DNA of 16,452 nt from an uncultured archaeon. Its GTDB lineage: Archaea; Asgardarchaeota; Lokiarchaeia; Sigyniarchaeales; Promethearchaeaceae. The DNA is taken from contig CAYRPF010000057.1 in NCBI GenBank assembly GCA_964426185.1, positions 1 through 16,452 on the forward strand. The letters run 5' to 3'. The notes under the pieces were generated by a model. The model was not told the DNA's origin, searched no databases, and worked only from the letters and a program-made list of their open reading frames with translations. Numbering within the stretch: the first letter of the stretch is position 1; every line of letters begins with the position of its first letter. The position numbers were made by a program, and so were the translations under genes. Positions 168 to 16,452 of the stretch are shown piece after piece.

Positions 168-695
168 ATGAGCACATACAAACTAAAAATATTGCTCTGC
201 GGCCCAGCTGCTGTTGGAAAAACAAGCCTGATTCATCGCTTCATCAAATCAAAATTTGAAAGAGATTACAAACTTACAGTAGGTGTTGATATTCTTACTA
301 AAAATGTAGAATATGCTGCAGGAAAAACAGCCACCCTATCCATATGGGATATAGGAGGGCAAGAGAGATTTTCATTCATCCGAACCACATTTTATAAGGG
401 CGCATCCGGAGCGTTATTGGTGTTTGATTTATCACGTAGTTCGACCTTTGGTTCAATCAAAAATTGGCGTGCTGAAGTAAGTCAGTTTGCAGGGGATATA
501 CCTTTTGTTTTGATCGGCAATAAGTTGGACTTGATTCCCGAGGTAGGTGAAGTGATTGATCGTGATGAGTGTCGTGAGTATGCAGAGGATGAGGGTTCAA
601 TTTATATCGAGACTAGTGCGAAGGATGGAACCAATGTAGATGAAGCTTTCATCGAATTGACCCGGTTGATTGTTGCAAAGAGCGAAGGCAAGTAA
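168..695 (+). CDS. Rab-like (Ras superfamily) small GTPase, 175 aa
   Basis: All five G boxes present: G1 GPAAVGKTS, G2 LTVGVD, G3 WDIGGQERF, G4 GNKLD, G5 ETSAK. Rab-like FYKGASGALLVFD segment. No C-terminal Cys prenylation motif. AGGAG SD at 154-158. Confidence 0.96.
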   Translation: MSTYKLKILLCGPAAVGKTSLIHRFIKSKFERDYKLTVGVDILTKNVEYAAGKTATLSIWDIGGQERFSFIRTTFYKGASGALLVFDLSRSSTFGSIKNWRAEVSQFAGDIPFVLIGNKLDLIPEVGEVIDRDECREYAEDEGSIYIETSAKDGTNVDEAFIELTRLIVAKSEGK

Positions 696-1839: not shown

Positions 1840-3426
1840 ATGCCACGTGGCGGAGGTAGTTTTGGAGGTGGGGGCTTTCGCGGAGGAGGATCACGCGGGT
1901 TTAGCGGTGGAGGATTTCGTTCAAGTAGTTTTTCACGTTCTGGTGGTTTTAGAGGTGGGTCTTCTTTTTCAGCACGGTCTTCTAGCTCTCGTCCATTTGG
2001 AAGAACCGGTGCTTCTCGAACTTTTTCCAGTAGCAGTCGTAGGGGCCCCTATTATCATAATCGCTACTATCCACATCGGCATTATTATGGATATTACCAT
2101 TATCCCTGGTATTATCGGCGTAGATGGTGGTACGGATACTATTATCGGCCATGGTATTATTCCCCAGGATATTGGGTTAGCGGAACCGTTTTCTTGCTGG
2201 TCTTCTTGCTGATTTTGCTCCCTTTGGTTGGAGTTGCAATTGCTTTTCCGTTCAGTGGAGGTTCGTCAGATGATACAATCAATTATCGTTCTACCGAAAC
2301 GCTCTATTTAAATGAATATTGGTATGAGTATGAATCCATTTCTGCGGGAGATTCTATACAATTTTCAGTCCAATCTAGCCCTGGACCCATAAGTTTTGCT
2401 ATAGCAGATCACCCCTTTGAGGAATTTCCTTTGGTTGATGAGACATTTCAAACAACTTTTACATCACAATTGTCGTATAATGATTTTGAATATTATCAAA
2501 TATTCTTGAATCCCGGCTCTCAGATTAGTTATCAATATACGAGCGATTTTCCCGTTGATTTTATAATTTTAGACGGCAATAACTTCAACAATTGGTATTA
2601 TTTTGAAGGATATTCGGCATATACAGAATTGTTGGCTTCTACTGGAAATACTGGCGTGCTAAATATTCCAGATGGATATCAAGATTATTATGTAGTTGTT
2701 TATAACCCTATTGAAGGGCAAGTTGCAAATGTGCAAGTTCAATTGGATATATATGCCACAGATATTCCGGATTTATCTTCAGCCTATTACTATGCTATCG
2801 GCGTTGATTCGATTTCTCAGAATAGTATTACCGTTCCTTCATCCGGTTCATGGTATTTCTTTGTATATGCAGATCCTCTCTACAATCCTTATGAATCAGT
2901 CGATATCACCTTCGATGTTACCTATGATACTTCGGCTCATCCTGTATCTGTGCAAGATCAATGGGCAAGCGCACGACCAACGTTAATTTGGATTTTAATC
3001 ATTGCGGGTGGTTTTTTGATTATCACTACTATTGCGCGCAAAAAGCAGAAGGCAAATAAAGATAAAATGAAACAACCGCAAGGTGCTTCTACTGCGTCTA
3101 AAACTTCTACGGTTTCCACAAGTTCTTCTTCTGCAACTTCTGCTTCAACAACATCAATGAAAACAACTTCTGCAAATATGAATGCAACTTCCAGTCAAAC
3201 TTTAGCCAGTACCTTGAAAAAGAAGTATAAATGTACTCGTTGCGGCGCAGAAATGGAAGCAGATGCAGTTTTCTGTCCCAATTGCGGGAAAAAGCGTGAA
3301 GGGCGATCTTTGGGCGTACCCTTGAAAACAACCCCTGGAAATCGCACTTACTGTAATTTCTGTGGTGCAAAACTACCTAAAGATGGAAAATTCTGTGAAA
3401 GCTGCGGAACTCCGATAGTACGCTGA
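1840..3426 (+). CDS. Two-TM membrane protein with N-terminal RGG/FG-rich and Tyr/Arg-rich regions, extracytoplasmic beta-rich domain and two C-terminal double zinc ribbons
   Basis: aa 1-69 G/S/R/F low complexity; aa 70-112 Y/H/R/W-rich; TM about aa 113-138; acidic aromatic domain aa 139-380; TM about aa 381-399 followed by RKKQK; S/T linker; four CxxC pairs (CTRC, CPNC, CNFC, CESC). AGGAGG SD at 1826-1831; starts 1 nt after the upstream stop. Confidence 0.9.
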   Translation: MPRGGGSFGGGGFRGGGSRGFSGGGFRSSSFSRSGGFRGGSSFSARSSSSRPFGRTGASRTFSSSSRRGPYYHNRYYPHRHYYGYYHYPWYYRRRWWYGYYYRPWYYSPGYWVSGTVFLLVFLLILLPLVGVAIAFPFSGGSSDDTINYRSTETLYLNEYWYEYESISAGDSIQFSVQSSPGPISFAIADHPFEEFPLVDETFQTTFTSQLSYNDFEYYQIFLNPGSQISYQYTSDFPVDFIILDGNNFNNWYYFEGYSAYTELLASTGNTGVLNIPDGYQDYYVVVYNPIEGQVANVQVQLDIYATDIPDLSSAYYYAIGVDSISQNSITVPSSGSWYFFVYADPLYNPYESVDITFDVTYDTSAHPVSVQDQWASARPTLIWILIIAGGFLIITTIARKKQKANKDKMKQPQGASTASKTSTVSTSSSSATSASTTSMKTTSANMNATSSQTLASTLKKKYKCTRCGAEMEADAVFCPNCGKKREGRSLGVPLKTTPGNRTYCNFCGAKLPKDGKFCESCGTPIVR

Positions 3427-5842: not shown

Positions 5843-7078
5843 TTGAATAAAATTATGAATTCCGCTAGGCGAATAAAACCCGTTGGTTTTGTTTATACTG
5901 AAGATTATAATGCATACAACTTTGGTGAAGGACACCCTCTTACTCCTCTCCGAATAGAAGTTACCTATGAACTGATGAAGGCATACAACTTACTTGAACA
6001 TCCCAATTTACATAAAATTTCGCCAAAACCGGCTACGGAAGAACAAGTGCTAAGAATCCACACTCAGGACTATCTGAATAAGTTGAAAGAGCTAAATTCT
6101 TTGACCCGCCCTTCGTATAAAGCATTTCCCGAATTTGGACTTGGACCTGGTGATAATCCTATCTTTCCAGGAATGTATGATGCTGCCTTAAGCGTGTGTG
6201 GTGCTTCGATTGCCGGGGCCGATTATATTTTGAAAGAAAATCATAACCGCGCTTTCAATATTACTGGAGGGCTTCATCATGCAATGCCAGGAATGGCATC
6301 AGGTTTTTGCATTCTAAATGATGTTGCTGTAGCAATTCAATATTTGCTGGATAATTCCCCCCTAAAGACTAAAATCATGTATTTAGACATCGATTGTCAC
6401 CATGGCGATGGAGTTCAATGGATATTTTATGAGAATCCTCAAGTATTAACACTTTCATTTCATCAAGATGGGCATACCATTTTTCCTGGAACCGGGCATT
6501 TGAATGAAAACGGGAAAGGAAATGGAAAATATTATGCATTAAATGTTCCATTTTTACCTGGTACCTTTGATCGACCATATATTGAAACATTTGAAAGAAT
6601 AGTTTCAGGTGTGATGAAAGCCTACAGACCCGATTATCTCGTTATGCAGTGCGGGATGGATACTCATTTCATGGATCCCCTTACAAATGCAGGATTATCT
6701 ACCGAGGGGCAAGAAAAAATATTTAAAATTGTTAATAGCCTGGTTCCGGATTATTCAGGCGATAAACTCTTGGCTTTGGGCGGAGGAGGATATAATATTG
6801 GAGTTGTAGCTCGATCTTGGACTATGATTCTTGCAAATCTTTTAGGTGTTCAAATTGATGATCCTCTACCGACAGATTGGCTGAAATTCTTAGAGTCAAA
6901 ATGGGATGATTCCCCCACACACCTTCCTTTTCAATTACGGGATCGCAATTTTTATATCGAAGAGCGGCAGTTGAAAGATCCTTTTTGGGTGGATTCTATT
7001 GAGGCGCACTTGGATGTCATCGTACAAAAATTTGAAGATGAATATATTCCTGCAATAAGAGAGAATCCTAGAAACTAA
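5843..7078 (+). CDS. acuC: Zn-dependent class I HDAC-like / acetoin utilization AcuC-family deacetylase
   Basis: Motifs GHPLTPLR, GDNPIFPG, GGLHHA, SGFC, DIDCHHGDGVQ, SFH, FPGTG, ALNVP, QCGMDTHFMDPL and GGGGY all intact. Start is TTG 5843 or ATG 5855. Symbol reflects family, not proven function. Confidence 0.95.
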   Translation: MNKIMNSARRIKPVGFVYTEDYNAYNFGEGHPLTPLRIEVTYELMKAYNLLEHPNLHKISPKPATEEQVLRIHTQDYLNKLKELNSLTRPSYKAFPEFGLGPGDNPIFPGMYDAALSVCGASIAGADYILKENHNRAFNITGGLHHAMPGMASGFCILNDVAVAIQYLLDNSPLKTKIMYLDIDCHHGDGVQWIFYENPQVLTLSFHQDGHTIFPGTGHLNENGKGNGKYYALNVPFLPGTFDRPYIETFERIVSGVMKAYRPDYLVMQCGMDTHFMDPLTNAGLSTEGQEKIFKIVNSLVPDYSGDKLLALGGGGYNIGVVARSWTMILANLLGVQIDDPLPTDWLKFLESKWDDSPTHLPFQLRDRNFYIEERQLKDPFWVDSIEAHLDVIVQKFEDEYIPAIRENPRN

Positions 7079-7108
7079 AAAAAAAATTATAATAGAGATG
7101 ATTTAAAG

Positions 7109-7864
7109 ATTTCGATCCATCCCCCGATTATATTATTTGATCTAGATGGAGTGCTATTAGATTCCAAAGGTCATCTTCTTGCAGCATTTGAATCTTTAAA
7201 ATATCCGTGGATTAAATGGAATCAATCATTAATAAATTCAATATCTCCTTTAGAAATCATCCGAATGTTTGAAAAATCCGCTAAAGCACGCAGTATAGCT
7301 AGTTTTCAGAGCATGACCAATGAATTCATGGAATTGATACCGAATCGGATTCGAAGATTTACATTTTTCATTACATTTAAGAGAAAAATGGAGAAATATG
7401 ATTGGCAGTATAATGATTTTTTTCCAGGAACAGTGGATATGATAAAGAAATTATCTGAAAAAGGAATACTCTTTGGGGCAGCTTCAAATAGCTTCGGTGA
7501 AAGGGTTAAAAAATGGATTGAAAACAAAGGGCTTAATCAAATCATTCATTGTGTTGTTACCAGAGATGAACGAAAAACCTTGGGAGTAAAGCCAAATCCC
7601 GCGGTTCTCTTGGGATTACTTGTTAAAATGAAAAAATATTATCATCTCTCTCGTATAGATCGCTCACAAGTGGTGTTTGTCGGGGATAATGTCTCAGATA
7701 TTTTAGCAGCTAAATTAGCAAAAGTAAAATCTATTGGAGTATTAAGCGGGCATGCTTCCAAAACTGAATTAGAAATGTTACAACCAGATTTTTTACTCAA
7801 TTCCGTCTTGGAGCTCCCGAAAATCTTTCCTTCCCTTTTTCCTAAATTTTTTACAACTAATTAA
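7109..7864 (+). CDS. HAD-superfamily hydrolase (phosphoglycolate phosphatase-like), paralog 1; start codon unresolved
   Basis: The frame upstream of GTG 7151 is open and reads ISIHPPIILFDLDGV, which contains motif I DxD. Motif II ASNS, motif III KPNP, motif IV GDNVSD. No in-frame ATG/GTG/TTG before motif I, so ATT 7109 is a provisional start. Confidence 0.88.
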   Translation: MSIHPPIILFDLDGVLLDSKGHLLAAFESLKYPWIKWNQSLINSISPLEIIRMFEKSAKARSIASFQSMTNEFMELIPNRIRRFTFFITFKRKMEKYDWQYNDFFPGTVDMIKKLSEKGILFGAASNSFGERVKKWIENKGLNQIIHCVVTRDERKTLGVKPNPAVLLGLLVKMKKYYHLSRIDRSQVVFVGDNVSDILAAKLAKVKSIGVLSGHASKTELEMLQPDFLLNSVLELPKIFPSLFPKFFTTN

Positions 7865-7885
7865 TTTTTATAGGAACTAGAGAAA

Positions 7886-8644
7886 ATGGAAAAGCACCCA
7901 GTTCTGCTATTTGATTTTGATGGAGTAATAATGAGATCAGTTGGACCTTCTAAATTAATGGCAGAAAAATTACAAGATCCTCGATTAAAATGGAACCAAT
8001 CTATTAGAAATTCTTTAAATCCCAACGATTTAATTAGGATGTTTGAATTATCTTCCCGCCCTTCGAATTTGGAAAGTTTGCAAATAATGAACCAGAATTT
8101 TACTCCTTTATTACCTTCATTTATTCATCGTTGGCATTTCTTTTTGACAGTAGCAAAGCATATACCTGAGTATGAAAGAAAATTTAATCATATCTTTCCA
8201 GATATTTGCCCCACTCTCATGAATTTAAGAAAAATGGGTATAACATTAGGCATAATCTCAAATTCTAAACGAGAAAGAATAGAAAGATGGTTAATTCATT
8301 CGAATATTCAAGATTTCTTCTCCGTTATTGTTACTCGAGACGATCGCAAGCAATATTTAATTAAACCTGATCCCCGCCCTATTTTGGGAGCTTTAATCCA
8401 ACTAAAACGTAAATACAGATGGAAATCAGTCGATCGATCATATGTGGGTTATGTTGGGGATAATATAATTGATGTTCAAGCTGCCCATAGGGCTAAAGTC
8501 AAAGCAATTGCAATTCTAACTGGTCATGGTACTCTTCATTCGTTGGAACTTCAGAATCCATCAGTAATTTTAGAATCATTTGGGCAAATTCTAAATAATA
8601 TATCTCATATTTTTCCAGATTTCGAAATTTCATCAAGTGGATAA
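7886..8644 (+). CDS. HAD-superfamily hydrolase (phosphoglycolate phosphatase-like), paralog 2
   Basis: LLFDFDGV, ISNS, KPDP, VGDNIID, LTGHG. AGGA about 10 nt upstream of the ATG. Shares KWNQS, IRMFE and VTRD with the upstream paralog. Confidence 0.94.
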   Translation: MEKHPVLLFDFDGVIMRSVGPSKLMAEKLQDPRLKWNQSIRNSLNPNDLIRMFELSSRPSNLESLQIMNQNFTPLLPSFIHRWHFFLTVAKHIPEYERKFNHIFPDICPTLMNLRKMGITLGIISNSKRERIERWLIHSNIQDFFSVIVTRDDRKQYLIKPDPRPILGALIQLKRKYRWKSVDRSYVGYVGDNIIDVQAAHRAKVKAIAILTGHGTLHSLELQNPSVILESFGQILNNISHIFPDFEISSSG

Positions 8645-8722: not shown

Positions 8723-11497
8723 ATGCTAATAGAAATTTCCCCCGAGAAAATGGATAAATCATTAACAAAAATTGTTCAAAAAATAAACCAGCTTCATGAA
8801 AAAAGTAAAATTTCAAAAATTAGAAGTCAAATCAGCAAAATATTGACCAAACTCAATCAACACCCCGAAAACGCTTATGTTTACCTTTATGTTCTTTCAA
8901 TTATAGTTGAAGAAATCCCTGAGTTGGCCGAAATTGAGATTATTGAGTATGTTCAGCCTTATATTACAGATGGTGCCTTGGACGAAAAAACAAATGCTGT
9001 TATTATAATCGGGTGGATCTTGCATCATTCACTTTCCGCCGAAAAAAACATTGACGATGAGCACATTCACAAATTTATCCAACTCTTAGGAGATGCTTTT
9101 ACAGAAGTTCGGATTAATGCCGCATTTTTCTTAAAAGATTTTATTGAAGATCAACAAGCAATATTTTTATTAAATTACCATGATTTTGTTCAATTCTTAA
9201 AAAATGAAACGAATCATGAAGTTTTAGAAGTAATTGGTATAATTTTGCAACAAATTCAACCCTTGATGAGTATTGGAATCTTAAAACAGTACTTAAGCGT
9301 TCTTGTTCAGATTTATGAAGAAAGCAATGTTCCCAAAAGGAGTGATGTTTTGCTTTTATTATTACAACAAGAAATTCCCGGATTGAAAGAAGCTGTTGAT
9401 GGCCATCGCTCAAAACGTGATTTACTTCAAATTATTCATAACCGTCCACCTTTAGTTAGGTTTATGGATCTGAATGATATTGCTGAGAATCAAAATATGA
9501 AAGTTGAGAAAGTAGAACAATACATACAAGCAGAATTAGATGAAGAAATGCATTATTCATTAGTATTCATGGAAAACCACCATAAAAAAATGCTGATTTT
9601 CGATAAGATGGAACTATTAAAATTTCTTTCTGGATCAAAAATTGCAATTGATACCGTTCGCAAGACATTGCAGCATATTGGAGTGGCCCATCAAGCAATT
9701 GGAGCTATTTTATTGCGTGATTTGCTGGACAGAGGGGAAATTGAAGGATTTTTAACTACTGAGTATTTTTACAGTCTTGATTTCATTCAGCAAGAATTAG
9801 AACAAGAACTTACAAAATCAGGGATGATTCATCTACAATCTGTTGAAAAACGCTATAATTCCGAAATAATTTCGAAATTGCTCGAAGAAATTACCTCTAA
9901 AACCCGATTTCATGGAATTTTTACCCAAGATAAATCACACTATTACACATTTAACTATTTGACCAAAGAAATCGAAAATGAGATGACCCGTAAGAATATT
10001 ATCGATTTAACCTCATATAAACAGAAATTTGGTCATGAAAATTTTCTCCGTTTGGAACAATTTTGTAAAGATCGCTTATTTAATGCTTATCATCAAGATC
10101 ACAAATGGTTGACTAATTTAGGTATGACTCGAATCCAACAATCAATTCGAACTGCAGAACAATTAGGTGAAGCTGATATCGAATATCTTGCTGCACAACT
10201 TGAAATTCCTGTGGAAATATATCGAAAGGTAATTAAACCGATTTTCAAAAGGAAAAATGGATTTTGGAATAAAGATGAAAACCACTTCTATTTTTCGAAA
10301 TTTGTTAAAAGAAGAATTAATGAGATACAATCTGAACCAAACCCTGAAATCCGGAAATCCCAAATCAAAGCATTAGCTGAAGAACTGCAAATTGATGAAG
10401 AAGATATTTCTCAAAAAGTAGATGAAAAACTTCAGAAAATTGCTGAACGTTTAATGGTAGCAGATGAAGTTGATATAAAACCTATGATGAAAGATTTGCA
10501 GATGGATTATAGGGAATTTCTTCAATTTATCGAAAGTATAGGTCGATCTGATGGATATCTAATTCTGAATAATAAAGTCATTTTTTCAGAAAAACGAATT
10601 CAAGAAGAAAAATCTAAAATTGCAGACAAAGTTTATTCTCGGGCTAAAAGAGCTGATTATTTTGATACTGATATCTTGGCAAATCAGTTGAAATATGCCC
10701 CTCAATTAATAAATGAAGCAATTGAACTTCTTCTGCAAGAAGGTAAAATTTCTGGAATATGGTTGAAAGAAAGGGAAAAATTCATTACTCTTCGTGGAAT
10801 TCAGAATCGAATGCAACAAGCAGAAGGTTATATAGATTTGAATAGTTTTATAGAAGAACGAGATCTTTTAGAAGAAGAAATAAATTTTCTCGAAGAGATA
10901 TTGCTACAAATGATCAAAGATCATGTACTTACTGGAGTCTACGATCCTAATAATAAAGTCTATCAAGACGAAGATACGGCTTCCAAAGCTAGTTTGGTAA
11001 CAGAACGAGAGAGGTTTACCAAAGAAATTATTCCGCAAATTGAAGATTTAGAACGTGCCTATACCCTACTCAGAGATATTTTCGTCAAAGAAGACATATA
11101 TCCCGGGGATATTGAAGAATATGATGAAATCTTGGAACAGACCATAAGAAAAATTTTCAATGCAGAAGCTTTAATCAAACGGATACTCAATAATGCCAAT
11201 CGGCGGTTAAATCGACAATTTTCCATTCCGAATTCGTCAAATTCCAGAAAATCTTCAAAGCGCAAAGTAAAGAAAAGACAAGGTCAAGCACCTGCAAAAT
11301 CATTTGACTTTAAAGATGATGAAGAAGTGGCTGTATTATTAAATGATTTCAAAAATTGGAAGGAATTATTGTTAGCTATTGAGCAAAAAAAAGGTGAAAT
11401 TGTCTTTTTAAAGAAAAAATTAAAGGTAAACCCTGATGATACCGATTCGTATTCAAAGCTCAAAAATTTGTTAGATTATCTCGGATTCAGTGAATAA
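8723..11497 (+). CDS. 924-aa protein: N-terminal HEAT/ARM-like repeats, tandem winged-helix repeats (UFL1/DDRGK1/PCI-like), C-terminal helical or coiled-coil region
   Basis: HEAT signature FIQLLGDAFTEVRINAAFFL. Recurrent winged-helix-like units (LLDRGEIEGFLTTEYFYS, GIFTQDKSHYYT, GFWNKDENHFYF, LLQEGKISGIWLKEREKFIT, MIKDHVLTGVYDPNNKVY). GGTGG SD-like at 8714-8718. CDS certain, domain call inferred. Confidence 0.7.
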   Translation: MLIEISPEKMDKSLTKIVQKINQLHEKSKISKIRSQISKILTKLNQHPENAYVYLYVLSIIVEEIPELAEIEIIEYVQPYITDGALDEKTNAVIIIGWILHHSLSAEKNIDDEHIHKFIQLLGDAFTEVRINAAFFLKDFIEDQQAIFLLNYHDFVQFLKNETNHEVLEVIGIILQQIQPLMSIGILKQYLSVLVQIYEESNVPKRSDVLLLLLQQEIPGLKEAVDGHRSKRDLLQIIHNRPPLVRFMDLNDIAENQNMKVEKVEQYIQAELDEEMHYSLVFMENHHKKMLIFDKMELLKFLSGSKIAIDTVRKTLQHIGVAHQAIGAILLRDLLDRGEIEGFLTTEYFYSLDFIQQELEQELTKSGMIHLQSVEKRYNSEIISKLLEEITSKTRFHGIFTQDKSHYYTFNYLTKEIENEMTRKNIIDLTSYKQKFGHENFLRLEQFCKDRLFNAYHQDHKWLTNLGMTRIQQSIRTAEQLGEADIEYLAAQLEIPVEIYRKVIKPIFKRKNGFWNKDENHFYFSKFVKRRINEIQSEPNPEIRKSQIKALAEELQIDEEDISQKVDEKLQKIAERLMVADEVDIKPMMKDLQMDYREFLQFIESIGRSDGYLILNNKVIFSEKRIQEEKSKIADKVYSRAKRADYFDTDILANQLKYAPQLINEAIELLLQEGKISGIWLKEREKFITLRGIQNRMQQAEGYIDLNSFIEERDLLEEEINFLEEILLQMIKDHVLTGVYDPNNKVYQDEDTASKASLVTERERFTKEIIPQIEDLERAYTLLRDIFVKEDIYPGDIEEYDEILEQTIRKIFNAEALIKRILNNANRRLNRQFSIPNSSNSRKSSKRKVKKRQGQAPAKSFDFKDDEEVAVLLNDFKNWKELLLAIEQKKGEIVFLKKKLKVNPDDTDSYSKLKNLLDYLGFSE

Positions 11498-11571: not shown

Positions 11572-13104
11572 ATGGTGGATTCGCCGGGATTAACGTTAGA
11601 AGAATTTGTGATCTATTCCAGTCCCAGATATTATCGCTTAATTTTTGAAGATATCAAACCTAAAACCAAAAACGGTGATTTAGTATCTGCTTTGAATGAA
11701 TTAAAGCGTGCTCGCATCTTAACTCCTTATTCACACTGGGATAAAGTAGTATTAACAGATCCATGTGGAATCACCTATCGAAATTTAATTGAAAAATTGC
11801 TACAATTGCAAATGCTCCAAGTCCCCCAGAATAATGGATTATTTGATTATCGGAGTGAATCAGGTAGACGCGCTATTGTGGAACTAATCCGATTTCTGGC
11901 TGCTAAATTTGATTTTACCAATTTCATGAATTATCTGCACATTCCACTTTTTGATTCGGAAAAAAATCCTGAGTGGATGAACCTATTTGGAGAAGATTCC
12001 AACTTAAATATTGATTACGAATCGCAAGATGGCCGGCAGAAATTAGTAGATTACCTTCAAAAAGTTAGTAAAAGGCATTCGCGACAAGGTTCACTAATGC
12101 ATAATACTATTTCGCATCAAAATCAACCCGTGCAGTTAAATTTGAAAATTTTAAAGAAATTTCTTCAAAATCATGGCTTAAAACGATCTGAACCTTTATT
12201 TAATCATTTTAATTCCGCTGTTCCTCCAGTTTTCCAGATTAAAGAGCGAAAATTCTTCGTAAACTTGGCTGAATTAACTAAAATTAAAGAAATTTTGGCA
12301 ACTTATATTATTAATTTTGAGAACTCAGAAAATGCCTGGTTAAACGACTACTTCAAACTTTTAAAGCTTCCCACAGGAAATTCCGGCTTGTTTGGCTTCC
12401 AAGTTGCCGATGAAATACAATACGCTTCTCAAACCGATGCTTTTTTAAATTTAGCTGTTGAAGGTCCACGCATTTTTGCAGGTCAGTTTTCCAGCATTGA
12501 AGGTCTGGGTGAATTAAGAGAAATTATGTTTCCCATTAATCCAGTAGAAACTTTGGTAATTTCTTGTAAGGATTTGGATCTTCTTTATTATTTTACCATT
12601 GAATCCGAAAAATGCATCTTTAAAATCCGAGAAAATCTTATAAGCATTAAGAATTTCCCAGAAAAATATATTACCTCCCGGAAAAGTAAAGAATTTGGAA
12701 AACTGGTATCACGTAGCCGAACATTGCAAGAAGCTCTTTTAATTCAAGAATTAGTACGGGAAACTCAAGATTTTAAGAAAAAACGGCTTCGGCAGAAGTT
12801 ACATCAAGTCAAAAATGATCTTCAAACCCAGATGGAGAATTTATCCAAAGTCAGTGCCAGTCTGATTACAATCTGTCAGATGATTTGTATGAAATTTAAT
12901 CGTGAATTTGCCTTGACTAAAACGATTTGCATTTTTGAACACGGCTTAATTAACTTGGTTGATATTGGAGGAGCAGATCAGATTTTAACTTCCGTTACTA
13001 TGGGAGAGATGGATTATGGAAGCACTTTAAAAAAAACCATGGAAAAGATCGAAAAATCACTGGAGGAAATCGTTGATTTGACTCCAAATTCAGAAAATAT
13101 TTAA
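11572..13104 (+). CDS. 510-aa protein with probable tandem Roadblock/LC7 (LAMTOR/MglB-like) domains in the C-terminal half
   Basis: Two segments (about aa 226-362 and 372-503) follow the Roadblock alpha-beta-beta-alpha-beta-beta-beta-alpha pattern, clearest in ENLSKVSASLITICQMICMKF..LTKTICIFEHGLINLVDIGGADQILTSVTMGEMDYG..MEKIEKSLEEIV. CDS certain, fold inferred. Confidence 0.55.
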   Translation: MVDSPGLTLEEFVIYSSPRYYRLIFEDIKPKTKNGDLVSALNELKRARILTPYSHWDKVVLTDPCGITYRNLIEKLLQLQMLQVPQNNGLFDYRSESGRRAIVELIRFLAAKFDFTNFMNYLHIPLFDSEKNPEWMNLFGEDSNLNIDYESQDGRQKLVDYLQKVSKRHSRQGSLMHNTISHQNQPVQLNLKILKKFLQNHGLKRSEPLFNHFNSAVPPVFQIKERKFFVNLAELTKIKEILATYIINFENSENAWLNDYFKLLKLPTGNSGLFGFQVADEIQYASQTDAFLNLAVEGPRIFAGQFSSIEGLGELREIMFPINPVETLVISCKDLDLLYYFTIESEKCIFKIRENLISIKNFPEKYITSRKSKEFGKLVSRSRTLQEALLIQELVRETQDFKKKRLRQKLHQVKNDLQTQMENLSKVSASLITICQMICMKFNREFALTKTICIFEHGLINLVDIGGADQILTSVTMGEMDYGSTLKKTMEKIEKSLEEIVDLTPNSENI

Positions 13105-15759: not shown

Positions 15760-16353
15760 TTATGCAAGTAATGATTGAAAATTTTTTTGTAAGATCTCAC
15801 GGCTCGACTTCTCCTCCAATAGAATCATCTCTTCACAAATTGCGAATGTTTCTTTTACATTGAAGCCATTTTTAGCCGAAGTTAAAATATAACCATAGAG
15901 ATTGCACTCATCCTTATACTGTTCATAAAAAGCAATAAGATCCTCCTCATATTGATCCACCTGTTCATGATCGATTAAATCTACCTTATTGCCCACTAAA
16001 AGTATCGGAATCTCCACATTTTCTTTAATTACCATTTCGATCCAAGCAGGCATATTTGAAAACGATCGATAGCGAGAAAGATCAAACACTATGAGGGCGC
16101 CTTTTATACCCTTAATATAGGCGTCTTGAACAGGTCTAAAACGATCTTGCCCACCCAGATCCATTGCCAAAAATTGCTTTATTCCTTCTTCTGGATTAGA
16201 AGCCTCAAGTGGAATAAACTCAAAATCAACTCCGATGGTAATGGATTTACTTGTATCGAAGTCTCGTTCCATTTTGGCTGCGATCAAAGACGACTTGCCA
16301 CAAGCGCCGTCACCCATGATGCCAATTTTATGAATTTCAGGCTTCTTTCCCAT
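15760..16353 (-). CDS. Rab-like (Ras superfamily) small GTPase, about 197 aa
   Basis: G1 GDGACGKSS, G2 ITIGVDF, G3 MDLGGQDRF, G4 VGNKVD, G5 LTSAK. ATG 16353 (MGKKPEIHKIG, AGGA upstream) preferred over the ORF-track start 16425. No prenylation motif. Confidence 0.94.
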   Translation of the reverse strand: MGKKPEIHKIGIMGDGACGKSSLIAAKMERDFDTSKSITIGVDFEFIPLEASNPEEGIKQFLAMDLGGQDRFRPVQDAYIKGIKGALIVFDLSRYRSFSNMPAWIEMVIKENVEIPILLVGNKVDLIDHEQVDQYEEDLIAFYEQYKDECNLYGYILTSAKNGFNVKETFAICEEMILLEEKSSREILQKNFQSLLA

Positions 16354-16452
16354 TTTGATAGTGTTCCTAATATTGTTAATTAACACATAGTGTTTGAATG
16401 CTAAATACGTTTTTGAAGTATACAACTTCTTATTTTTAATGAAAAATTTCTG

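Follow-up and report, generated by a model that had tools for sequence, protein, structure and literature searches.

A single-chain protein of Promethearchaeaceae with an ARM/HEAT-type solenoid and a UFL1/DDRGK1-like winged-helix array

Introduction

Human UFL1 binds the 60S ribosomal subunit via its C-terminal domain and a winged-helix (WH) rod. The rod is a tandem array of WH domains to which two chains, UFL1 and DDRGK1, contribute, completing a shared WH between them (PDB entries 8b9x, 8c0d, 8ohd and 8qfc). The N-terminal helix of human UFL1 (residues 1-26) binds UFC1 and is needed for activity, and it is absent from the crystallised chimera (PMC10702826). UFC1 has been published as a eukaryote-only protein (PMC10183829). 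From Asgard archaea, a fusion of Vps28, an adaptin/COPI appendage and E3 UFM1-protein ligase 1 was described by Liu et al. (preprint 10.1101/2020.10.19.343400). Here we report the analysis of a gene at positions 8723-11497 on the forward strand of a 16,452-nucleotide stretch (contig CAYRPF010000057.1 of assembly GCA_964426185.1, hereafter the window) from an uncultured archaeon of the Promethearchaeaceae. The gene has a stop-free translation of 924 amino acids plus a stop codon, and it is a single-copy core gene of one Asgard order.

A sequence-only reading of the window had proposed that this single polypeptide combines HEAT repeats with UFL1-like and DDRGK1-like WH arrays. The presence of a HEAT/ARM module and a UFL1/DDRGK1-like WH array in one chain was borne out by the Pfam family E3_UFM1_ligase (PF09743), Foldseek, VIA-align and two structure models, and the interpretation as a whole was partly supported. 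We consider it very probable that the WH array is homologous to UFL1 and DDRGK1. The protein is best explained, with a probability of roughly 0.6, as a non-catalytic, UFM1-independent scaffold and as a lineage-specific paralogue that has diverged from the Asgard UFL1-like protein already catalogued. No paper describing an architecture of solenoid, eight WH units and helical hairpin was found in the searchable literature.

Results and Discussion

The winged-helix array resembles the UFL1-DDRGK1 backbone

The full-length protein was modelled with AlphaFold2 from an alignment of 17 orthologues, with a mean predicted local distance difference test score (pLDDT) of 84.7. Because the VIA-align comparison with this model was dominated by the solenoid, residues 240-760 were folded separately from 32 orthologues (pLDDT 86.3) for the comparison of the WH domains. 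Both models agreed on a solenoid at residues 1-240, eight WH units at residues 245-752, and helices flanking a disordered loop. The WH units were all complete within the one chain, in contrast to the human backbone with its WH shared between two chains. About eight repeated units had been counted between residues 245 and 750 from the sequence, and this observation was confirmed by the models together with unit-by-unit hhalign comparison for most of the units. WH2, WH3, WH5, WH7 and WH8 were mutually recognised, mostly with 71-95% probability; exceptions were a small number of pairs, WH2-WH5 and WH5-WH8 among them. WH4 was recognised by WH3 alone (87-88%), and WH1 and WH6 showed no sequence match to the other units; the WH character of these three is seen mainly in the model.

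The protein matched PF09743 with 35.2 bits (cut-off 23.2, E 1.4e-8) over residues 381-568 on profile positions 28-214, and a second stretch was found on profile positions 125-261. Since the window protein was the sole one of 17 members to pass PF09743, the sequence signal is marginal, and the case is carried by the agreement of profile and multi-unit structure. A single-sequence phmmer search against the PDB gave nothing relevant and no UFL1, and a full-length profile of 17 sequences retrieved HEAT proteins only. UFL1/DDRGK1 first appeared with the 32-sequence profile of the WH array, for which 8b9x was the best of 177,635 PDB sequences (E 3.7e-5, 187 positions). This entry is an engineered chimera of DDRGK1 residues 207-305 and UFL1 residues 27-200.

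When the whole model was compared by Foldseek, the UFL1 chains 8qfc_B, 8ohd_A and 9gy4_E occupied ranks 1-3 (7.6e-8 to 3e-6), before the karyopherins that matched the solenoid. For the WH array the same three chains were obtained at 8.2e-11 to 7.8e-9, followed by the DDRGK1-UFL1 chimera 8b9x at 3e-7 (ranks 4-5). RPC82 was found at 1.3e-4 (probability 0.5), SelB at 3.9e-4, and PCI and cullin proteins above 7e-3, so that SelB, PCI and RPC82 were 1e3-1e6 times weaker than UFL1 and the chimera, with a UFL1 lead of about six orders of magnitude. The comparison by VIA-align with 48,161 representative chains, which is independent of Foldseek, gave 8b9x_B as the first match, with a Z-score of 10.4 and a root-mean-square deviation (rmsd) of 6.6 Å over 237 of 255 residues. 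This superposition spans four WH units in matching relative arrangement, and the unit order and packing of the human rod are matched over these four units. The next-best matches were single WHs with Z of 8.4 or less. The C-terminal four-WH array of SelB, which also carries its tandem WHs in one chain, was a far weaker match (Foldseek TM-score 0.23; VIA-align Z 6.9, rmsd 19 Å), and its inter-unit arrangement differs.

Conservation and distribution

A word-indexed search found 17 relatives of 913-936 amino acids that aligned from end to end with identities of 24-73% (one at 24%, the rest at 40-73%). They are all annotated 'hypothetical'; among the organisms that encode them are Candidatus Harpocratesius, Lokiarchaeum ossiferum (NEF87_004387) and Prometheoarchaeum syntrophicum. 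The orthologues in L. ossiferum and P. syntrophicum, both of which are in culture, make the protein a tractable test object. By an exhaustive HMMER search of 1.8 billion representatives, the family was extended to 62 representatives (50% clustering) with identities down to ~20%, and most of the complete ones had the same length as the window protein.

The distribution was determined by running the family profile on 400 genomes of the phylum, with E 1e-10 as the threshold of absence. Within the order to which the window's genome belongs, one copy per genome was found in three families (13 of 13, 1 of 1 and 126 of 135 genomes), which gives full-length orthologues in 140 of 149 genomes. No genome of a fourth family of this order (0 of 4) carried the scaffold at E ≤1e-10, nor was there a match at this threshold in the remaining sampled Asgard genomes, ~250 in total. 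The named members belong to the Promethearchaeales. The presence once per genome in three families and the absence from the other sampled genomes indicate a near-universal core gene that is restricted to the order.

A divergent paralogue of the canonical Asgard UFL1-like family

Two distant matches of the exhaustive search passed the cut-offs of both Pfam DDRGK and E3_UFM1_ligase. With one of them as query, a canonical family of at least 191 clusters was obtained, most of those listed being ~690-800 amino acids long. This family occurs in genomes labelled Loki-, Thor-, Hermod-, Hod- and Heimdall-, and its usual annotation is 'PCI domain-containing protein' or 'DUF2042'. Its members have N-terminal Zn-ribbon cysteines, five WH units, a beta-rich domain (ear) and a Vps28-like tail, and they correspond to the fusion reported by Liu et al. 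The canonical-family profile matched 8b9x with E 1.1e-14, with DDRGK1 207-297 on positions 125-217 and UFL1 26-248 on positions 219-432. Because of this collinear mapping, the canonical family represents a natural single chain in which DDRGK1 is followed by UFL1.

It was found that a canonical protein is also encoded in the window's genome, where it is split over two contig ends (C125:3-833 and C27:34926-36182, both on the reverse strand), the halves sharing 69-80% identity with L. ossiferum NEF87_003698. This genome therefore has two UFL1-like paralogues side by side. Pfam DDRGK gave sub-threshold matches only over the whole genome, and three of them fell within the split canonical gene, two in its C125 part and one in its C27 part.

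Alignment of the two families by hhalign gave a probability of 98.6% (E 1.2e-15, identity ~23-24%), and the alignment was confined to the WH array, with window-family positions 303-763 on canonical positions 135-436. The canonical family combines its Zn-ribbon and five WHs with an ear and a Vps28 tail, whereas the window family has an ARM/HEAT front, eight WHs and a helical hairpin tail. About 190 residues that are extra relative to the canonical paralogue correspond to WH4, WH5, the linker and WH6, and they are highly conserved. As the WH array alone aligns and front, middle and tail differ, the window protein is a paralogue and not a member of the canonical family. The canonical family is widespread in Asgard archaea, in contrast to the window family, which is confined to one order. 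Both are single chains with DDRGK1 followed by UFL1, and both are encoded in the window's genome and in L. ossiferum. A second Asgard architecture thus stands beside the described type of UFL1-like WHs, adaptin ear and Vps28 tail in the same genomes, which strengthens the case for a common origin of DDRGK1 and UFL1 from a single chain; by itself it does not reveal what the scaffold binds.

A third architecture was observed in a metagenomic protein of 1258 amino acids (P0075), which matched DDRGK and E3_UFM1_ligase over their cut-offs and showed sub-cut-off matches to an N-terminal domain of the GIFT/ABC_transp_aux type and to a region resembling DUF11.

Register of the array and the DDRGK1-equivalent unit

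The peptides quoted in the sequence-only reading were located as stated there, namely a UFL1-like segment at residues 398-429 (nucleotides 9914-10009), a DDRGK1-like segment at residues 650-690 (nucleotides 10670-10792) and a basic segment at residues 838-852. The first of them was well placed. The PF09743 match opens at residue 381 on profile position 28. By hhalign, WH2 (9605..9775, residues 295-351; this and all further parts of the gene on the forward strand) was aligned with U1, the canonical unit that corresponds to the DDRGK1 WH, and WH3 (9776..9949, residues 352-409) with U2, whose human counterpart combines the terminal part of DDRGK1 with the initial part of UFL1. In the VIA-align superposition, chimera residue 1 was paired with residue 281 of the window protein, and residues 281-526 were covered (model residues 42-287). 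These three registers, and one alignment to a UFL1 chain in the PDB, concur in making residues 398-429 the UFL1 segment after its first wing, and the wing of WH3 begins this motif. WH3 is the best equivalent of the composite DDRGK1-pWH'/UFL1-pWH, which here forms one continuous domain. Over a core of about residues 281-526, the unit order and the spatial arrangement correspond to the DDRGK1 WH, the composite WH and UFL1 WH1-2.

The hmmsearch alignment to the chimera was one unit off from those of hhalign, VIA-align and Pfam and placed WH1 on the DDRGK1 WH, so the register is uncertain by one repeat. WH1 (9455..9604, residues 245-294) is WH-like in the model and was not recognised by sequence profile, and of four tests of the register, one paired it with the DDRGK1 WH. 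By collinearity, WH2 is the best equivalent of the DDRGK1 WH. In either register, the DDRGK1 equivalent precedes the UFL1-like part, which is also the order of the human complex.

The proposal of a DDRGK1-like unit at residues 650-690 was not supported. This segment belongs to WH7 (10589..10789, residues 623-689), a textbook PCI-type WH. Pfam DDRGK (PF09756) gave no match to the whole protein at E ≤10, and WH7 alone reached 15.3 bits (E 0.016) against a cut-off of 27.8. At WH7 the family profile matched DDRGK1 with E 0.26 and the ribosomal protein eS25 with E 0.19. The structural comparison likewise gave a tie between DDRGK1 (Z 8.9, 25% identity), the PCI WH of CSN4 (Z 9.8, rmsd 2.2 Å, 70 residues) and generic WHs, with NiaR, BirA and Z-alpha domains at Z 8.0-8.4. 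WH7 is collinear with the canonical unit U4, which corresponds approximately to UFL1 WH2 (hhalign 97.5%). WH7 is a generic PCI-type WH. PCI subunits of the CSN, the proteasome lid and eIF3 have an alpha-solenoid followed by a WH, as here; in these subunits a single WH adjoins the solenoid, whereas the window protein has eight WHs and the PCI-like WH7 lies away from the solenoid. The last unit, WH8 (10790..10978, residues 690-752), is acidic (net charge -10) and showed weak matches to PCI and MCM6_C only. It had been called PCI-like, for which the signal was weak, since Pfam PCI (PF01399, cut-off 22) gave 13.8 bits for WH8 and 7.8 bits for the whole protein.

The likeness of single units to regulators raises the question of nucleic-acid binding, in which case the protein would bind DNA or RNA through its many WHs, in the manner of transcription regulators or the SelB array, and its solenoid would serve for protein interaction. 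Consistent with this, NiaR, BirA and Z-alpha match single units about as well as PCI WHs do, the BlaI repressor was found on WH2 with E 0.003, SelB is in the Foldseek list, and relatives of the canonical paralogue are labelled as Lrp/ArsR/MarR regulators in their sources. The multi-unit arrangement, however, fits that of DDRGK1-UFL1 and not that of SelB, the WH units are neutral to acidic, and the basic loop is disordered and non-conserved. We therefore regard a nucleic-acid-binding protein as improbable.

It could also be argued that any tandem WH array would score in this way and that the protein is not specifically related, in evolutionary terms, to the scaffold of the UFM1 ligase. The passing of PF09743 by one of 17 members, the phmmer search without UFL1 and the register ambiguity of one unit all fit such generic likeness, as does the match of WH7 to every canonical unit (93-97%). 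The sequence-only reading had itself named equal or better matches of generic WHs as a refuting result. This was found for WH7 taken alone and was not found for the whole array, for which SelB, RPC82, cullins, PCI lids and ESCRT-II were far lower in both Foldseek and VIA-align. Moreover, the family profile ranked the chimera first among the PDB sequences, and hhalign linked the family to the canonical family, whose members pass the DDRGK and E3_UFM1_ligase cut-offs. These results make a merely generic likeness very unlikely.

UFM1 pathway genes and the requirements of an E3

The window's genome comprises 3.26 Mb and is 92% complete. No match at E ≤1 was found in it for Pfam Ufm1 (PF03671), Peptidase_C78 (PF07910) or CDK5RAP3 (PF05600), and the scores for Pfam UFC1 (PF08694, cut-off 25 bits), 12.9 and 11.2, were at noise level. 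When the UFC1-like protein of a related genome was used as query, there was again no match in this genome. It had been stated from the sequence that the window contains no gene for a ubiquitin-like protein (Ubl), an E1 or an E2, and this is correct. The genome search for UFM1 pathway genes that had been proposed alongside gave no UFM1 or UFC1 profile match. The genome has four genes for ThiF-type, E1-like proteins over the ThiF cut-off and one canonical UQ_con E2. One of the ThiF-family genes lies 9 kb downstream of the scaffold gene (C57:20263-21789, reverse strand, L021:4264-5790); it encodes at least 508 amino acids and is cut by the contig end, and the intervening genes include those for a glutamate dehydrogenase and an amino-acid permease.

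Of the 400 Asgard genomes, 22 had UFC1-like genes, 18 of them with a score over the cut-off; none of the 14 control genomes had one. In one genome of the same family (G133:C467), which carries the scaffold, a free-standing open reading frame (ORF) of 92 amino acids (L025:1495-1773, reverse strand) is Ufm1-like with 12.8 bits and E 0.12 on Pfam Ufm1, and ends in VGG-F. It is followed after 2 nucleotides by an ORF of 186 amino acids (L025:932-1492, reverse strand) that reached 28.4 bits on Pfam UFC1 (cut-off 25). In the scaffold-bearing families, a UFC1-like E2 was found in 1 of 13 and in 13 of 135 genomes, 14 in total, against 140 of 149 genomes with the scaffold; at least 126 sampled genomes have the scaffold without a UFC1-like gene. 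This discrepancy indicates that the scaffold is independent of a UFC1-type system.

The sequence features that serve conjugation in the human complex were also compared. No counterpart of the UFC1-binding helix was found, as the array aligned to the helix-deleted chimera without an insert in either register and the models showed plain WHs. A DDRGK1-type N-terminal membrane anchor or UFM1-binding region is likewise not detectable in the model, in which the N-terminus appears as a soluble ARM/HEAT solenoid. As modelled, the window protein thus differs from the human proteins in lacking these three elements, and further in its eight units with a family-specific middle insert, its ARM/HEAT front and its different C-terminal end.

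These data bear on the possibility that the protein is an E3-like adaptor, either of the patchy Asgard UFM1-type operon (Ufm1-like, UFC1-like, UBA5-like and JAMM) or of the canonical Asgard ubiquitin system. In such an adaptor, the solenoid would hold the substrate and the WH backbone would bring a charged E2 into place on it. Its backbone is homologous to that of the only known scaffold-type UFM1 E3, the Ufm1-like/UFC1-like ORF pair occurs in a scaffold-bearing genome of the same family, UFC1-like genes exist in Asgard genomes and not in the controls, and the window's own genome has the UQ_con E2 and the ThiF-type genes described above. The many genomes with the scaffold and no UFC1-like gene, among them the window's own by both profile and protein search, argue against such an adaptor, as do the missing counterpart of the UFC1-binding helix (PMC10702826) and the five loci read, in which the scaffold was never adjacent to Ubl, E1 or E2 genes. 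An E3-like adaptor is therefore considered unlikely, if somewhat less so than a nucleic-acid binder.

A protein of 445 amino acids encoded elsewhere in the genome (C26:24420-25757, reverse strand) has an N-terminal domain of ~96 residues, a long linker rich in Pro/Ser and, at its C-terminus, a membrane helix. It gave no Pfam match, and its very few close relatives were too few for a profile.

Proposed role

The preferred reading, a non-catalytic scaffold, would work without UFM1 conjugation. Its WH rod may form a rigid platform for one large partner, the solenoid may hold another protein or a peptide, and the C-terminal helices may contact a third partner or self-associate. Solely by analogy with UFL1/DDRGK1, the large ribosomal subunit is our leading guess for the large partner. 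The near-universal presence of the gene in the order, with or without a UFC1-like E2, makes the case stronger for a tag-independent, ancestral scaffold function.

Several points weigh against the scaffold reading. The sequence signal is borderline and depends on profile and structure comparisons of a repeat protein, none of the 16 other aligned members reached E 0.1 on PF09743 singly, and hmmsearch aligned the array to the chimera with an offset of one unit. Independence from UFM1 is weakened by the possibility that Pfam overlooks divergent Ufm1-like folds, by the UQ_con E2 and the four ThiF-type genes of the genome, and by the candidate UFM1-like head on the C26 membrane protein. Contact with rRNA finds no support, because the protein is acidic to neutral. 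The gene neighbourhood gives no functional clue, and no partner was identified there.

A bolder form of the scaffold reading would be that of a single-chain UFL1-DDRGK1 machine that predates UFM1 and acts on the archaeal large ribosomal subunit or another assembly, doubling as an E3 where a Ufm1-like/UFC1-like operon is present. In such a machine, the ARM/HEAT arm and the helical tail would recruit clients of the docked WH clamp. We regard this as a speculative and rather improbable extension; if true, the two cultured Asgard archaea with orthologues would allow a direct test of what this scaffold originally did without a tag.

Other parts of the protein

The ARM/HEAT-type alpha-solenoid (8723..9442, residues 1-240) has a net charge of -11, and in the model ~14 helices (residues 12-239) are stacked. 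The family profile matched the HEAT repeats of transportin-1 (E 1.8e-4) and symplekin (E 1.2e-3) in the PDB. Pfam Cnd1 and HEAT_2 matched several family members, and Pfam HEAT and Cnd1 were under the cut-off for the window protein itself. The ARM repeats of importin-alpha were matched by VIA-align over residues 14-241 with Z 13.9, which shows the fold class only, because such values are common among helical repeats. The N-terminal 240 residues thus have helical repeats like those of karyopherins/importins and other ARM/HEAT solenoids; the solenoid of the window protein is short, with about five to six repeats, and no family-specific Pfam model was over the cut-off.

WH4 (9950..10114, residues 410-464) is atypical, with one long helix, and the E3_UFM1_ligase match passes through it. 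WH5 (10115..10294, residues 465-524) lies between the conserved motifs WLTNLG..TRIQQ (residues 462-476, at the WH4/WH5 boundary) and FYFSK (residues 522-536, at the WH5/linker boundary). It is followed by a helical linker of three helices with lower model confidence (10295..10462, residues 525-580) and by the divergent WH6 (10463..10588, residues 581-622), which holds the conserved LQMDY..F..FI motif (residues 592-606). All three motifs, which rank among the best-conserved stretches of the family, are in the family-specific middle insert, which suggests that the insert carries a putative binding surface peculiar to this family.

The first arm of the C-terminal helical hairpin is formed by long helices (10994..11221, residues 758-833), and the second by a long helix region at residues 867-902 in the model. 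The C-terminal helices (11321..11494, residues 867-924) contain the most conserved stretch of the family, residues 886-900. Between the arms lies a disordered loop (11222..11320, residues 834-866) with a net charge of +7, in which residues 834-857 had a pLDDT below 50. This loop is the sole strongly basic element of a protein that is otherwise acidic to neutral, with -6 for WH1 in addition to the values of WH8 and the solenoid given above. The basic segment noticed from the sequence at residues 838-852 is present in the window protein; it is not a feature of the whole family, for the loop is K/R-rich in the closer subfamily only and is short, of mixed composition and non-conserved in distant members.

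Gene neighbourhood and other genes of the window

The window is AT-rich (GC 32-42%) and densely coding. Upstream of the scaffold, at 5843-8644 on the forward strand, a gene of the class I/II-type histone-deacetylase (HDAC) family is followed by tandem paralogous ORFs of 237 and 252 amino acids, whose L. ossiferum counterparts carry HAD-type phosphatase Pfam marks. The same block of HDAC and HAD-type genes precedes the scaffold in L. ossiferum and in one other relative, assembly GCA_030588345. Distant family members adjoin purH/IMPDH genes. In two unrelated metagenomic loci (L017:5659-5955, forward strand, and L020:8757-9050, reverse strand), a conserved ORF of 97-98 amino acids, by eye winged helix-turn-helix-like, is located between purH and the distant members. 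The small ORFs beside distant members were considered as Ubls and rejected, as the 98-residue neighbours have this winged helix-turn-helix-like appearance and the rest are unrelated.

Downstream of the scaffold, a protein of 510 amino acids (11572-13104, forward strand) gave no Pfam match; its L. ossiferum counterpart is 61% identical and also adjacent, and the gene adjoins the scaffold in four of the genomes where contigs permit the check. It was rejected as an obligatory CDK5RAP3-like partner, as only 6 of the 13 genomes of the window's family were found to have it, along with none of 42 from the main sister family, and as the genome gave no CDK5RAP3 profile match. A protein of 561 amino acids with a faint UQ_con mark, one of the neighbours of distant members, was found to be unrelated to this 510-residue gene product.

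Genes for Ras/Rab-type small GTPases, typical of Asgard archaea, are present at both ends of the window (168-695, forward strand, Pfam Ras E 1.8e-47; 15760-16425, reverse strand). The window also holds genes for a pentapeptide-repeat protein and a GNAT-SCP2 protein, which, like the histone deacetylase, are Asgard hallmarks. A protein of 528 amino acids encoded at 1840-3426 on the forward strand exhibits a low-complexity N-terminus rich in Gly/Ser/Arg and Tyr, hydrophobic segments, a tract rich in Ser/Thr and, in its C-terminal part, two zinc-ribbon motifs of the form CxxC...CxxC, and the start of its gene overlaps by a few bases the stop of a gene for a CBS-domain membrane protein.

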